A stretch of 64,000 nt of DNA from Gammaproteobacteria bacterium (GCA_021773275.1 JAJFKJ010000053.1:63421-127420), one strand, 5' to 3'; counted from the stretch's first letter, positions 27,343-38,500 are shown. Made by a program: numbers and translations. Notes: generated by a model not told the origin, from the letters alone.

Positions 27343-27395
27343 GTAAAGGGGGCAGCGAGCACCGCGAGCGGGGGATTTTATACTTGCAATGATCT
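27343..27395. repeat. Family-B double-hairpin repeat (CCCCCTTTTGTAAAGGGGGCAGCGAGCACCGCGAGCGGGGGATTTTATACTTGCAATGATC), copy 1.
   Basis: It is near-identical to 27545..27606. Related copies are at 29888..29940 and 38444..38500, with a partial copy at 36281..36300. Confidence 0.85.
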
Positions 27396-27544
27396 TGAGT
27401 CAGAGCCGCGCGCGTGAGCAAGCGGGCCAATGCAAGATTGTTAGATGGGCCCACTCCCTTACGGTCGTGGCTCTAAAGACGTGATTATCTTAAGTGCTAG
27501 GCATTGCATATATATTCGTTCTTGCAATAATCTTACCGTTGAAC

Positions 27545-27707
27545 CGCCCCCTTTTGTAAAGGGGGCAGCGAGCACCGCGAGCGGGGGATTTTATACTTGC
27601 AACAATCCTGCTGTAGGGGTCGCATTGTATGCGACCCGGCATTGCACAGCAATGCTGTAACCACGAACTATTGCTCGTGCGGGCAGCATTTAATGCCGCC
27701 CCTACAA
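27545..27707. repeat. Family-B repeat copy 2 joined by the linker CAACAATCCTGCTGTA to a full mosaic palindromic element (unit, hairpins, inverted unit).
   Basis: GTAGGGGTCGCATTGTATGCGACCCG lies at 27613..27638 and the inverted CGGGCAGCATTTAATGCCGCCCCTAC at 27680..27705. Confidence 0.85.
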
Positions 27708-27812
27708 CAGCTTCACCGCCACCTTCAATTACCCTCATAAATAGTCATAATAATAACAAAAATCAATTGACCCTCATCCCCATTTTTCGGTAAGATATCC
27801 TTAAAAATAGGG

Positions 27813-28991
27813 ATGCCCCTTCATATGGATGGAAGATTGATAAATATCAAAGAAGCAAGGATGCTGGAACCCAGTGATCTATTGCCGTACTCAAACAATA
27901 ATTTACTCAGCGATTTAGCTGAAAAGCTAGATGTGCTCACAAAGCTGGTGTTTATCACAGATATGTTTGTGCAAGCCATCGATGCATTTATGCAAGGTCG
28001 CTTGTCCGAGTTTGATGCGCATGTTGGAGATTGCTTATGCCAAATTCGCGCATATCAGATTTTGTTGATGTTCCGCTACCGATCTGATTACGATCTTCTG
28101 ATAGAAAAAGATAAACTAAAAAAACTTTCCTGTTTACTTCATGATCAGGTTGACTTGTACACCAAGCACAGAACTATCAAGCGACAGCTTTGCCCAAAAG
28201 AAATGACAAAAAAAGAAACGTTGCAGGAATTTTTAACAAAACAGAAAATCCATTTTAATATAAGCAGAAAGTCGTTAATAGTACTGCAGTGCTTCTTTTT
28301 ATCAAAGTATAAAGAAATGCATTCGGGTTATACCATTCTTGATCATAACGCTATACAAAAGGGCATGCAGGTTTCTAGAGATTTTTCCAGGCGGATGCTG
28401 CAGTTATATCAAAAGAAAGTCGCAGAAGCTTCTTGTGATTTTATTTCAGATTTATTAGCTGAGGCGCCGTCATTAAAAGGACTGAGGTCCGCCATTCATT
28501 TGTTTAAAGAAAATGATGAGCAAGATAGGTTGGTTTATCCTTCTTTTCTTGTAGGGAAGATTATATTAGAGGATATGCTTTATAGGCAGAATCCTATATT
28601 GATAAAAAGTAATAAGCGAAAGGTGGTTCTTTACCCATGTGCAAGAGAAAATAGCTATTTCGAAAATAGCCCATGCTTTATTTTGGATGGTCTATCAATG
28701 CTAGATAAGGGTTTTTATGAATCTATTAACAAGTTTGGTATCGAAAATATAATATTGTCAAATATGGCAATTCATCCTCAATATCCTGGGGAGAAGTTAT
28801 CCCACCTTAAAAACAACCCTTTTAGGGGGGTAATAGATTCACTTTCGTGTGAGCAAGATAGACAGGATGAATATAATGCACTAAAAAAAATAGAAGAAGA
28901 GTTCATAACCATGAAGTATATTGCATTAGAGCAGGGTTGCCACATAGGTGATCACAGCCTTTTTATATCCAGCATATATATTGTGATTTAA
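27813..28991 (+). CDS. Hypothetical 392-aa protein, AT-rich lineage-specific orphan; candidate effector.
   Basis: A long ORF with markedly lower GC than its neighbours and no recognisable motif. Confidence 0.5.
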   Translation: MPLHMDGRLINIKEARMLEPSDLLPYSNNNLLSDLAEKLDVLTKLVFITDMFVQAIDAFMQGRLSEFDAHVGDCLCQIRAYQILLMFRYRSDYDLLIEKDKLKKLSCLLHDQVDLYTKHRTIKRQLCPKEMTKKETLQEFLTKQKIHFNISRKSLIVLQCFFLSKYKEMHSGYTILDHNAIQKGMQVSRDFSRRMLQLYQKKVAEASCDFISDLLAEAPSLKGLRSAIHLFKENDEQDRLVYPSFLVGKIILEDMLYRQNPILIKSNKRKVVLYPCARENSYFENSPCFILDGLSMLDKGFYESINKFGIENIILSNMAIHPQYPGEKLSHLKNNPFRGVIDSLSCEQDRQDEYNALKKIEEEFITMKYIALEQGCHIGDHSLFISSIYIVI

Positions 28992-29157
28992 TCGGGGGCC
29001 AGTTTAGCAAAGCTTCCTCAAACCTTAATATGAATCGTTATAGTTGCAAAATTACTAATATAAAGGAACAAGAAAACCTAGTTGTGGTCTGACCAAGGTA
29101 AATCCGTCATAGCTTATTATCTGCTACTATATATTAAAGAAATATAGTGGAATTGAA

Positions 29158-36270: not shown

Positions 36271-36280
36271 GAAGTATTCG

Positions 36281-36415
36281 CCCCCTTTGTGAAGGCTTTG
36301 TTGTATTAATGCTATGAGCTAATGTAGGGGTCGAACCCTGTTCGACCCGGCATCGCGAAGCGATGCAATTCCACAGGCATACGCCTGCGCGGGCGGCACA
36401 GGGTGCCGCCCCTAC
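36281..36415. repeat. Partial family-B hairpin followed by a mosaic palindromic element, downstream of parC.
   Basis: CGCCCCCTTTGTGAAGG is followed by GTAGGGGTCGAACCCTGTTCGACCCG, hairpins, and the inverted CGGGCGGCACAGGGTGCCGCCCCTAC. Confidence 0.85.
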
Positions 36416-36532
36416 GGTACGTTTTTTGCAAGTGTATTTACATAGGTCATTCATCCACATAACCTATTGACAACCCCGCATAGGTATGGTTAACTTACAC
36501 ACACAAGTTTATAACAAAATGGATGTTGTTTT

Positions 36533-38443
36533 ATGCCAAACCCCAACGAAAAACTGACTGTAGAAAGGCAACCATCATCGTTTAAAGATGCTGCAATGGT
36601 TGCCTCTATCCATGCCGGTAAGCATATTAATAAGTTTACGGCCGGTGTTTCTCATTACGCGGGCATATTCGCTGCATTTCTTGGCGCATTTGTTTTTGCT
36701 ATTCCCAATATGCTTGCCGGTGCACGCAGAATCTTGCATGCTTTTTATAATATCATGAACCTTTATATAGACACGGTCGAAAAACGCGAGCGCATTGCCG
36801 TACGATCCATACTGCTAACACCCTTTATCTATTTTTTTGGCATGATCTTCGGTTTTTTTGCGATGCCATTTTACTTATATGCAAATCTCCAAAAAAGTGG
36901 GGTGCTTGAGTCTTTCAAGAGAACGTATTATAGCGATGAGAATTTATACGGCAATAAACATGCGCAAGAACAAAATTACTACAAAGCATACTATTACACT
37001 TGGCTTTCTTTAACATTGATAATGGCACCTGTTTTATTAGGTGCTGCTGCGAATTTAACACTGAAGTATGGTTTTAATTCAGAATTTTCATTTACTTTGA
37101 TTGAACCTTTCCAGGAGCTTATGGGTGTTTCGGGCATGGCGGGCAATGCACTTGTCGGTGTGCTGCTTATGGTGCTGGTCAGCTGGGTCGTGGGTTTTGC
37201 CTGTAAGTTTTATTTTGGAGAAAATTTAGGCAAAGATAAAACTTACGAAAAACAAAATGACAATAACCATGATATAGATGCTGATCATGACAATACTATC
37301 GATAAAAAAAATCATCATACACCCAAGAAAAAATCAGGTACTTGGGAGGCAGTAACCAGTTGGTTTTTTGGCGATGATCAAGAAGGTGAGTCAAGTGTAG
37401 AAAATGTGCTTGATGCAGTGATGAGCATGCTTGGCTTGGAATCCGAAGCCGACTTAAAAAAACTACGTGTTACAGAACAATACAGCCCCGGTGGCTCTGA
37501 AGATGACGAAGACGATTTAGCAAACCACAGTATTATGTTAACTATTGATGCAGAAGCTGTGGGTGGTAAAGAAAAGACAGTCGTGGAGTGCCAGGTTGCC
37601 TTAGGAGCGGGCGAAGTTGCTGTGTATATGAATTATTCGAGTAAAAATCAAGAGTACCCTGTTTTAGCGCAGATTGGTACTGTAAACTGGGATTTGCCCA
37701 AAGATAAGCGCTTTTTAGTACCGCTAGCAAACCCCGCGAACACGCCAGCAAGAAATGTTAATCCGAATGAGATTATATTAAGAACACCAGCAGGGCAAAG
37801 CTGTAGAAGTGAACAAGGGACAAGTCCGGCAGTCATGTCGCCTGTGCAAAGCAAGCCAAGCAATGGCGCGTTGCTGGGTTCGCTTAATTTTCAGATGCAA
37901 GCAAAACTTATTGATCAAACGTTCATGACATCTGTGCAAGATGATATGAACACAGGGTTTTTGGTAAGAAACACTGAGCAAAACCGTATTGAATACAAGC
38001 ATGCATTAGATGAAAATTCACTCGGCGCAAAATGTTGGATCAACAATAAAAGCGAAGTTTTTATAGCCGTATTTGATGGTCGTTATAAAGCAGGTACTAT
38101 TAAGAAAGACAGTAATGTATGGGTTTTTGAATCGTGCTTGAGTGATGTTGGCGCTTCAAAAGATGCAACACCACTGAAATCTACTGATAGATTGTGCACA
38201 CCCATGCGGTCGGCATATAAAACGCCCGGTCAAACACCCTTTAGAACACCAGCATCAGGCGTTAAGACTCCAGGTCCAGCACCAAACCCTACGCCGGCAA
38301 CTGCGGTTGGCCCTGGCAATACGCTGATTATGGCAAGAGCGCCAGCACAAAGACAAACTCAAGGAGCAGGGCGCACGACTACCTCAAGAGTGTTGTTTGT
38401 AGGACCTCCGCTTACACCAGGCACACCTATTAAGCCTGGCTAA
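36533..38443 (+). CDS. Hypothetical 636-aa membrane protein with an N-terminal multi-TM region and a Thr-Pro-rich low-complexity C-terminus; candidate effector.
   Basis: It has five or more hydrophobic helices in the first 230 aa and an acidic stretch. The C-terminus is YKTPGQTPFRTPASGVKTPGPAPNPTPATA. The gene is flanked by repeat elements on both sides. Confidence 0.55.
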   Translation: MPNPNEKLTVERQPSSFKDAAMVASIHAGKHINKFTAGVSHYAGIFAAFLGAFVFAIPNMLAGARRILHAFYNIMNLYIDTVEKRERIAVRSILLTPFIYFFGMIFGFFAMPFYLYANLQKSGVLESFKRTYYSDENLYGNKHAQEQNYYKAYYYTWLSLTLIMAPVLLGAAANLTLKYGFNSEFSFTLIEPFQELMGVSGMAGNALVGVLLMVLVSWVVGFACKFYFGENLGKDKTYEKQNDNNHDIDADHDNTIDKKNHHTPKKKSGTWEAVTSWFFGDDQEGESSVENVLDAVMSMLGLESEADLKKLRVTEQYSPGGSEDDEDDLANHSIMLTIDAEAVGGKEKTVVECQVALGAGEVAVYMNYSSKNQEYPVLAQIGTVNWDLPKDKRFLVPLANPANTPARNVNPNEIILRTPAGQSCRSEQGTSPAVMSPVQSKPSNGALLGSLNFQMQAKLIDQTFMTSVQDDMNTGFLVRNTEQNRIEYKHALDENSLGAKCWINNKSEVFIAVFDGRYKAGTIKKDSNVWVFESCLSDVGASKDATPLKSTDRLCTPMRSAYKTPGQTPFRTPASGVKTPGPAPNPTPATAVGPGNTLIMARAPAQRQTQGAGRTTTSRVLFVGPPLTPGTPIKPG

Positions 38444-38500
38444 TTTGTGAAGGTGGCAGCGCAAAGCGCGGGGTATTTTATACTTGCAATAATCTTATGC
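38444..38500. repeat. Family-B variant repeat (TTTGTGAAGGTGGCAGCGCAAAGCGCGGGGTATTTTATACTTGCAATAATCTTATGC) directly after a stop codon; terminator-like.
   Basis: It shares the TTTTATACTTGCAATAATC core with 27343 and 27545. Confidence 0.7.

Follow-up and report, generated by a model that had tools for sequence, protein, structure and literature searches.

The DNA analysed here is a stretch of 64,000 nt from Gammaproteobacteria bacterium (GCA_021773275.1, JAJFKJ010000053.1:63421-127420), referred to below as the window. The original prediction had pointed to a dispersed repeat in it, family B, placed at the 3' ends of genes; all counts of family B for this organism are limited to the window. Five sites were found, all on the plus strand. 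Copy 1 (27332..27397) and copy 2 (27545..27610) are full copies and share the 633-nt intergenic spacer downstream of a LysR-type gene (26253-27179, +), copy 1 lying 155 nt 3' of the gene. Copy 3 (29887..29936) is a diverged full copy of the TTTTTGAA subtype, located between a PAS gene (ends at 29853, +) and recG (ends at 29942, -). A remnant, CGCCCCCTTTGTGAAGG (36279..36295), starts 9 nt past the parC stop (36268-36270) and comprises the 5' arm and the loop of the first hairpin only. Copy 5 (38444..38496) is truncated at its 5' end and begins at the base following the stop (38441-38443) of a gene for a 636-aa protein, which is followed by a DUF1015 gene. The gene context was as originally described: the PAS gene converges with recG, the remnant follows the ParE-ParC genes and the last copy follows the 636-aa gene.

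The two copies in the LysR spacer are nearly identical. The 56-mer CCCCCTTTTGTAAAGGGGGCAGCGAGCACCGCGAGCGGGGGATTTTATACTTGCAA occurs exactly twice, with starts at 27334 and 27547 and a spacing of 213 bp, and had no match in 100 dinucleotide-preserving shuffles of the window. The similarity reaches 66 nt with 95% identity (27332-27397 vs 27545-27610). The repeat itself had been recognised correctly, but its starts had been given as 27343 and 27545 (off by 9 and 2) and its spacing as 200 bp. The claimed end (T/C)AATC was not recovered either: the bases after TTGCAA are TGATC in one main copy and CAATC in the other. Copies 1 and 2 occupy the same 633-nt intergenic region at a distance of 213 nt, and for this pair a local duplication is certain.

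The window was scored with a profile built from family B members of other genomes. The diverged copy between the convergent PAS gene and recG was confirmed at 29887-29936 (E 8e-9), as was the variant directly after the stop of the 636-aa gene (38442-38480, E 2.6e-6). The partial copy claimed after parC was recovered as a marginal match of 17 nt (36279-36295, E 0.07). Beyond these five sites, profile and pattern searches returned no more family B copies in the window. The 38444 copy and copy 1 have 29 nt in common at 93% identity, spanning the G run, the T run and the tail. Two subtypes, TTTTGTAAA and TTTTTGAA, are both present in the window, and each is matched by relatives in other genomes.

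Copies 1 and 2 are built in the order CCCCCTTT-TGT-AAAGGGGG (first hairpin, H1), CA, GCGAGC-ACC-GCGAGC (second hairpin, H2), GGGGG, ATTTT and the tail ATACTTGCAAYRATCYTG. As read from the sequence of copy 1 (+), H1 (CCCCCTTT/AAAGGGGG) occupies 27334-27352, the linker CA 27353-27354, H2 27355-27369, the five G's 27370-27374 and ATTTT 27375-27379, followed by the tail ATACTTGCAATGATCTTG. H1 is a palindrome of 19–21 nt that can fold into a stem-loop, as do the palindromes of 20–40 bp in REP elements (PMC3733652). Its stem has 9 bp in copies 1 and 2, and the predicted fold of the element amounts to -24 kcal/mol as RNA and -12.7 kcal/mol as DNA. The H2 of these copies was predicted with 3 bp (GCG/CGC) and -3 kcal/mol, which is no better than shuffles. 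Read by eye, its direct repeat GCGAGC..GCGAGC could pair through four Watson-Crick pairs plus tandem G-A.

The other window copies depart from this design. In the 29887 copy, H1 is CTCCCTT/AAGGGGG (8 bp with one G-U), and H2 is CCCGCC..GGCGGG at 29910-29929 (six GC pairs), then GGTTTTT. The 38444 copy reads TTTGTGAAGGTGGCAGC, a short hairpin GCGC-AAA-GCGC, GGGGTATTTT and the tail ATACTTGCAATAATCTT. H1 cannot form there because the C5 arm is absent and coding sequence and the stop codon fill its place. The 36279 remnant is without the G5 arm, and neither it nor the 38444 site has a GC-rich stem of at least 5 bp with a loop of 3–8 nt. Hence, the description of each copy as an 8-bp hairpin plus a second GC hairpin and a T tract was true for only three of the five copies. 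H1 is restricted to the two copies at 27.3–27.6 kb (9 bp) and the 29887 copy, and the H2 of the two main copies is weak (predicted 3 bp).

Relatives were found in other genomes. A collection of species-representative genomes was scanned once with a degenerate pattern (TTTKTRAAGGNGGCAGC, 5–30 nt, GGGGNWTTTT), which returned 27 stretches of the same architecture, none of them from the window's organism. Eighteen of the 27 belonged to one metagenome-assembled genome (MAG), 'Gammaproteobacteria bacterium GcC11-33' (46–49% GC), which thus has at least 18 near-identical copies on separate contigs or sites. Five came from the gammaproteobacterial MAG CAYGUI01 (32–34% GC), three from Methylococcaceae/Methylococcales MAGs (43% GC) and one from a Nevskiales MAG (61% GC). 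In the JGI metagenomes, the same pattern was present on ten contigs, with the same types plus one new variant. While the host GC content ranges from 32 to 61%, H1 stays nearly invariant, loop included.

Proteins common to the window and the relative loci were 28–56% identical over their full length, and ParE was 74% identical over 140 aa. Nine of the ten window proteins tested, including EF-P and ParE, were either alone in their cluster at 90% identity or its representative. With common proteins this diverged, shared descent alone cannot explain an identical non-coding 20-mer. On this sequence evidence, its presence across such hosts must reflect either horizontal spread or strong constraint.

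Across genomes, a family B unit has about 50–70 nt and consists of a leader, the conserved H1 (G)CCCCC-TTTGTAAA-GGGGG(C), a variable H2, G4-6, (A)T4-6 and a lineage-specific tail. The usual linker between H1 and H2 is CAGC. The closing pair of H1 covaries (G..C, A..T, T..A, CT..AG). H2 was represented by more than 12 different self-complementary stems, varying between and within genomes: examples are GCGCC/GGCGC, GCACC/GGTGC, GCGGC/GCCGT, AGCC/GGCT, GTCGGC/GCCGAC, GTCGCT/AGCGAC and GCATTGC/GCAATGC, and one relative (L012) has a 15-bp stem. An H2 of GcC11-33, CCGAG-TATTC-CGAGG, follows the 'CGAG..CGAG' design of the window copies. Since its length variation defeated alignment-based covariation (MAFFT and RNAalifold recovered H1 only), H2 pairing was judged copy by copy. 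Some stems contain G-T pairs on the sense strand (T-G in the 29887 H1, GCGGC/GCCGT in L014 and GCCGCCG/CGGTGGC in L018). Roughly every second distinct H2 loop is a triloop of the G-N-A type (GAA, GTA, GCA). Such triloops are unusually stable in single-stranded DNA, which is only suggestive of a hairpin acting at the DNA level.

With a looser pattern (CCCCCTT..AAGGGGG..GGGGGWTTT), 50 IMG/VR contigs (L029-L078) and a Pseudanabaena galeata plasmid (NZ_CP112876.1; L079 1500-1700) were matched. In these repeats, CCCCCTTT-N-AAAGGGGG hairpins are enclosed by the arms AAATCCCCCC and GGGGGGATTT, or GATCCCCC and GGGGGATC. They resemble family B in the CCCCCTTT-N-AAAGGGGG hairpins and the GGGGGAT(TT) arms, and they are often palindromic overall. 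Unlike the window copies, they have the outer 5' arm AAATCCCCCC and no CAGC linker. Their likeness to family B may be due to homology or to convergence. The C5/G5-hairpin repeats of IMG/VR occur in many viral or prophage contigs, and we located no published name for them or for those of Pseudanabaena. The plasmid collection held no match to a window copy, and the general C5/G5 motif matched only the Pseudanabaena plasmid in it. Rfam returned nothing at the gathering threshold across the whole window, and at E up to 10 it returned only noise around the family B copies and one relative. Full-text literature searches for strings of the hairpin sequence yielded no relevant paper.

Family B units also occur in tandem and in inverted pairs. 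Tandem arrays of 45–48-nt units, each made up of leader, H1 and the first half of H2, were found in GcC11-33 and in one metagenome contig (L016 1-200, L021 3190-3320, L023 3100-3191, L003 4135-4231 and L088 13946-14090, the last being the metagenome contig). The G run and the T run stand only on the last unit, and arrays reach four H1 units without T run. The non-hairpin part of the units is identical inside one array and different between arrays. At the Methylococcaceae, CAYGUI and Nevskiales loci, head-to-head pairs with complementary outer arms (AAAATCCCCC and GGGGGATTTT) make up a palindromic element of 90–150 nt. Judged by sequence, the single copies of the window look like halves of such doublets. 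They are single arms with no matching AAAATCCCCC upstream and so have no terminal inverted repeats.

Moreover, family B is joined to repetitive extragenic palindromic (REP) elements. Eight of the 18 copies in GcC11-33 run, after CTT (3 nt), into a GTAG-tagged REP hairpin (GTAGGGGCGAAA....TTTCGCCC). Several of the GcC11-33 copies also have a REP just upstream, and the order REP, leader, B, CTT, REP is recurrent. In the window, the mosaic 27545-27705 comprises copy 2, its tail ATACTTGCAACAATCCTG and, directly continuing from the tail, a REP doublet of a second repeat family, family A (27613..27705, +). This doublet consists of a GTAG-tagged REP hairpin (GTAGGGGTCGCA..TGCGACCC), a second hairpin (GCATTGC-ACA-GCAATGC) and an inverted partner (GGGCAGCA..TGCCGCCCCTAC), and its predicted RNA fold is -51 kcal/mol (z -5.6). 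Behind the 36279 remnant, a further family A doublet (36320-36417) follows after 24 unrelated bases. The frequent fusion to family A that had been proposed is therefore real at 27545-27705 and loose at 36279-36417. As it is seen both in the window and in GcC11-33, the association of family B with REPs is recurrent across genomes, though the REP sequences differ.

Gene orientation across genomes was taken from crude open reading frame (ORF) calls of at least 100 aa, by which 28 copies could be classified. Between genes of the same direction, 15 copies were in sense and 3 in antisense orientation; convergent genes flanked 9 copies and divergent genes 1 copy. As background, the same loci had 78 unidirectional, 20 convergent and 33 divergent intergenic regions. 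All three antisense cases were Methylococcaceae doublets, in which both orientations are present, and two of the three loci are apparently the same site. In the window, every copy is on the same strand as its upstream gene. REPs mostly occupy the gaps between unidirectional or convergent ORFs, on the 3' side of coding regions (PMC3733652). With 27 of the 28 classifiable copies between unidirectional or convergent ORFs, the distribution of family B matches the published REP pattern and is also the one to be expected of a terminator.

In a canonical intrinsic terminator, no more than about 2 nt may separate the stem from the U tract. A T tract 0–2 nt after the stem was found only at 29930-29936, in the 29887 copy. 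Copies 1, 2 and 5, like most relatives, have a G run of 4–6 nt between H2 and the T run, and CAGC after H1. The canonical geometry of stem and U tract is missing in most copies because the G run follows H2 and no T's follow H1. Under the standard terminator model, the RNA-DNA hybrid at the T run would start with rG:dC pairs, with no hairpin able to invade it. The consensus terminator scan reported only 29910-29929 among the family sites and none of the copies at 27334, 27547 and 38444. The predicted folds keep H1, and the C5 arm is not paired with the second G run; such a pairing was rejected as a terminator, being several kcal/mol worse than H1 in a rough nearest-neighbour hand estimate.

In the 29887 copy, the G run is absorbed into the H2 stem, and by its predicted structure this is a canonical terminator, the only such copy. 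Placed between convergent genes at 3–4 nt from the recG stop, it plausibly acts in both directions in the model. Family B had been taken for a mobile or duplicated intrinsic-terminator module. A dispersed multi-copy module at the 3' ends of genes was found; its reading as an intrinsic terminator as such was not supported, since the geometry fits only at 29887. Given the 9-bp hairpin and the predicted fold of -24 kcal/mol, a role in RNA stability is plausible.

The reading that we favour, with moderate confidence, is that family B is a non-autonomous palindromic repeat of the kind of REPs, bacterial interspersed mosaic elements (BIMEs) and miniature inverted-repeat transposable elements (MITEs). 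Its window copies would mostly be half or decayed copies, with a likely secondary effect as RNA hairpins at 3' ends. This kind of element is suggested because there are arrays without T runs, doublets, truncated copies, fusions to REPs and near-identical copies behind unrelated genes. Family B would be copied and spread as DNA, probably via recognition of the single-strand hairpin by an enzyme supplied in trans, and would persist only where the harm is small, namely downstream of coding regions. If co-transcribed with the upstream gene, the stable H1 could act as a barrier to 3' exonucleases or as a weak attenuator, by analogy with the REPs and BIMEs of Escherichia coli. Individual copies, here 29887-29936, may have drifted or been selected into a bidirectional terminator.

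Several observations weigh against this reading. No gene resembling a transposase or a REP-associated tyrosine transposase (RAYT) was detected in the window or in the fetched loci (nothing below E 0.8, tblastn with E. coli RayT), a search of limited sensitivity given divergent RAYTs and genome fragments only. There was no consistent target-site duplication across copies and no empty site; neither could be demonstrated, as the collections contain no close relative of the window's organism. ATGATC flanks copy 1 on either side, and 27397-27520 is bracketed by a direct repeat of 14 nt (CTTGCAATRATCTT). Moreover, family B is without the tag of classical REPs, an unpaired GTAG or CGTC at one end of the palindrome; neither tetranucleotide adjoins H1 or H2 in any copy. 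All five window sites fall inside 11 kb, with 64 kb of the genome examined. The bias towards the sense orientation could reflect selection for an RNA function. In 30 of 36 cases, the top strand of family B coincided with the G-rich strand of the locus, and orientation to genes and orientation to replication are therefore inseparable in these data.

A wider reading, which we regard as possible and only tentative, is that family B and its relatives form a separate, undescribed super-family of palindromic mobile elements without a tag, in which the nearly invariant hairpin GCCCCCTTTGTAAAGGGGGC would be the site of a horizontally spreading single-strand DNA enzyme or RNA-binding factor. The elements would be composed of the conserved C5/G5 hairpin, a hypervariable compensating hairpin and the arms with G run and T run. 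The factor would be common to Methylococcales, Nevskiales and other gammaproteobacteria, there might be kinship to the cyanobacterial and IMG/VR C5/G5 repeats, and the interposed G run might have a specific role, e.g. pairing with the C5 arm of the partner copy. The first interpretation of family B, a dedicated intrinsic (Rho-independent) terminator module that was duplicated or recruited since it terminates the upstream gene, appears unlikely. It would account for copies lying sense-downstream of genes or between convergent genes and nearly never between divergent ones, for the T run at the end of every full copy and for the 29887 copy with its 6-bp all-GC stem and GGTTTTT between convergent genes; the outer arms of the doublets, AAAATCCCCC/GGGGGATTTT, would also form a bidirectional terminator-like stem. 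However, 5–6 G's stand between H2 and the T run in the main copies and most relatives, H1 runs into CAGC, only -3 kcal/mol is predicted for H2 in copies 1 and 2, and the copies at 27334, 27547 and 38444 were not called by the consensus scan. Nor would a terminator module be expected to follow one gene twice within 213 nt, to form arrays of up to four H1 units that carry no T run or to keep its remainder despite the loss of H1, as in the 38444 copy.

Family B could also be a cis-acting structured RNA of 3' untranslated regions (UTRs) or intercistronic regions, with H1 recognised by a conserved RNA-binding protein or ribonuclease and H2 as a spacer; it might, for example, determine processing or stability, or be the scaffold of a small RNA from the 3' UTR. 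This is improbable in our view. The near-invariant H1 and loop in hosts of 32–61% GC, the compensatory changes of H2, the bias towards the sense orientation and the sense-strand G-T pairs in some stems (29887 H1, L014, L018) are in agreement with it. Against it stand the missing Rfam match even at E up to 10, the functionally unrelated upstream genes (LysR, PAS, ParC and a protein of no assigned function) and loops that are mostly triloops, where GNRA or UNCG tetraloops would be usual for RNA, while arrays, inverted doublets, truncations and REP fusions are traits of selfish repeats. We consider it very improbable that the window copies merely reflect local segmental duplication together with convergence on terminator-like sequences, without any mobile or dispersed family in this genome. 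The clustering of five sites in 11 kb of the 64-kb window, with none elsewhere in it, and the certain local duplication of copies 1 and 2 (213 nt apart) speak for such an origin, but the 38444 copy, 11 kb off and behind an unrelated gene, has 29 nt at 93% identity to copy 1. In addition, the coexisting subtypes TTTTGTAAA and TTTTTGAA each have relatives in other genomes, and the same core is multi-copy in other genomes.

Compared with known systems, family B is closest to REPs, BIMEs and REP doublets forming hairpins (REPINs) (Di Nocera et al. 2013, PMC3733652; Nunvar et al. 2010, PMC2817692; Corneloup et al. 2021, PMC8266576). Like REPs and BIMEs, it consists of short GC-rich palindromes in many copies, which are extragenic and mostly lie after genes. 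Both occur as singlets, as inverted doublets and in tandem clusters along with other motifs, and a transcribed 3' hairpin is plausible in both. A further BIME-like mosaic trait is the clustering with GTAG REP hairpins in regular order, in the window and in GcC11-33. Unlike REPs, family B is untagged and has a conserved C5/G5 stem with an A/T-rich top, a second hypervariable hairpin and then a G run and a T run. While REP classes are usually species- or genus-specific, the core of family B is common to hosts of different orders. Since the GTAG/CGTC tag is absent, family B is not a classical REP. The family is real and new, but of an established REP-like kind, and it is physically embedded in REP/BIME mosaics.

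MITEs that also affect regulation, such as the Correia elements of Neisseria and the enterobacterial repetitive intergenic consensus (ERIC) sequences, are small non-autonomous elements inserted near genes, which are co-transcribed and whose long hairpins can affect mRNA processing or termination. The doublet form of family B is MITE-like in having terminal inverted arms (AAAATCCCCC/GGGGGATTTT), which were seen in other genomes only. The window copies differ from MITEs in being single arms without terminal inverted repeats, and no parental insertion sequence and no target-site duplication were found for them. Without terminal inverted repeats and a demonstrable target duplication, they are not MITEs by definition. 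With intrinsic terminators, family B shares GC-rich hairpins followed by a T run, sense-downstream of genes, and 29887-29936 fits fully. Unlike ordinary terminators, its copies share sequence behind unrelated genes and in unrelated genomes, and H1, the strongest hairpin, has no T run.

Other identities were considered and set aside. A CRISPR-like array was rejected as the 'spacers' within one array are identical, and integron attC sites were rejected as the copies lie behind housekeeping genes and have no R'/R'' core. A DNA uptake sequence disagrees with a core common to several orders and with the low copy number. For polar motifs such as FtsK-orienting polar sequences (KOPS) or Chi, there was no match to GGGNAGGG or GCTGGTGG. 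A promoter in the tail of family B was dismissed, with matches of only 9/12 and a count in the region equal to the count in shuffles. The window contained no tRNA or transfer-messenger RNA.

With family B, the known small bacterial repeats gain a family that spans several orders. It offers a test case for movement between hosts of very different GC content and for a frozen hairpin beside a freely covarying one. If a partner enzyme is found, the conserved 20-nt hairpin provides a defined substrate. Annotating copies of family B as terminators is inadvisable without 3'-end data. The repeats can also break assemblies and yield spurious ORFs: an 82-aa ORF call (27490-27738, -) crosses copy 2 and the family A doublet and is almost certainly a repeat artefact.

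Family A sites were located at 407-460, 1891-1990, 27613-27705, about 36320-36417 and 45613-45656. Their second hairpin has 7 bp and is always paired, with a different sequence in each copy (GCATTGC/GCAATGC, GCATCGC/GCGATGC, GTGCAGC/GCTGCAC, CACGAGC/GCTCGTG). Thus, families A and B follow the same logic of a conserved hairpin plus a variable hairpin. The H2 of one family B relative (L080, GCATTGC-GCA-GCAATGC) nearly equals the second hairpin of family A at 27638-27657. Three family A copies (54528-54661) lie within a 553-aa ORF call (53505-55166), either as REPs inserted in a gene or through a chimeric ORF call. A 110-nt direct repeat with 74% identity (288-397 and 1766-1875) covers the 3' ends of two coding regions, one entering from the window start and ending near 395 and the other being the ORF 478-1872, with a family A copy after each. 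These coding regions look like tandem paralogues.

The tail motif CTTGCAAYAATCYT had 13 matches in the window at up to two mismatches, compared with 3.5 expected. Sites are 1878-1891, 1993-2006, 27383-27396, 27521-27534, 27596-27609, 38483-38496 and 45598-45612. The motif forms the tail of the family B copies and is also present on the left flank of family A copies, in one case (1891-1990) on both flanks. It may be a preferred junction or insertion site common to families A and B. An orphan tail motif, CTTGCAATAATCTT (27521..27534, +), lies between copies 1 and 2. In the same interval, an imperfect palindrome of 83 nt (27399-27481; AGAGCC...GGCTCT, inner GGGCC..GGGCCC) has a predicted RNA fold of -41.7 kcal/mol (z -4.3), a value reached by none of 200 shuffles. 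Neither a second copy in the window nor an Rfam match was found for it. The 633-nt spacer downstream of the LysR-type gene piles up at least three kinds of hairpin element.

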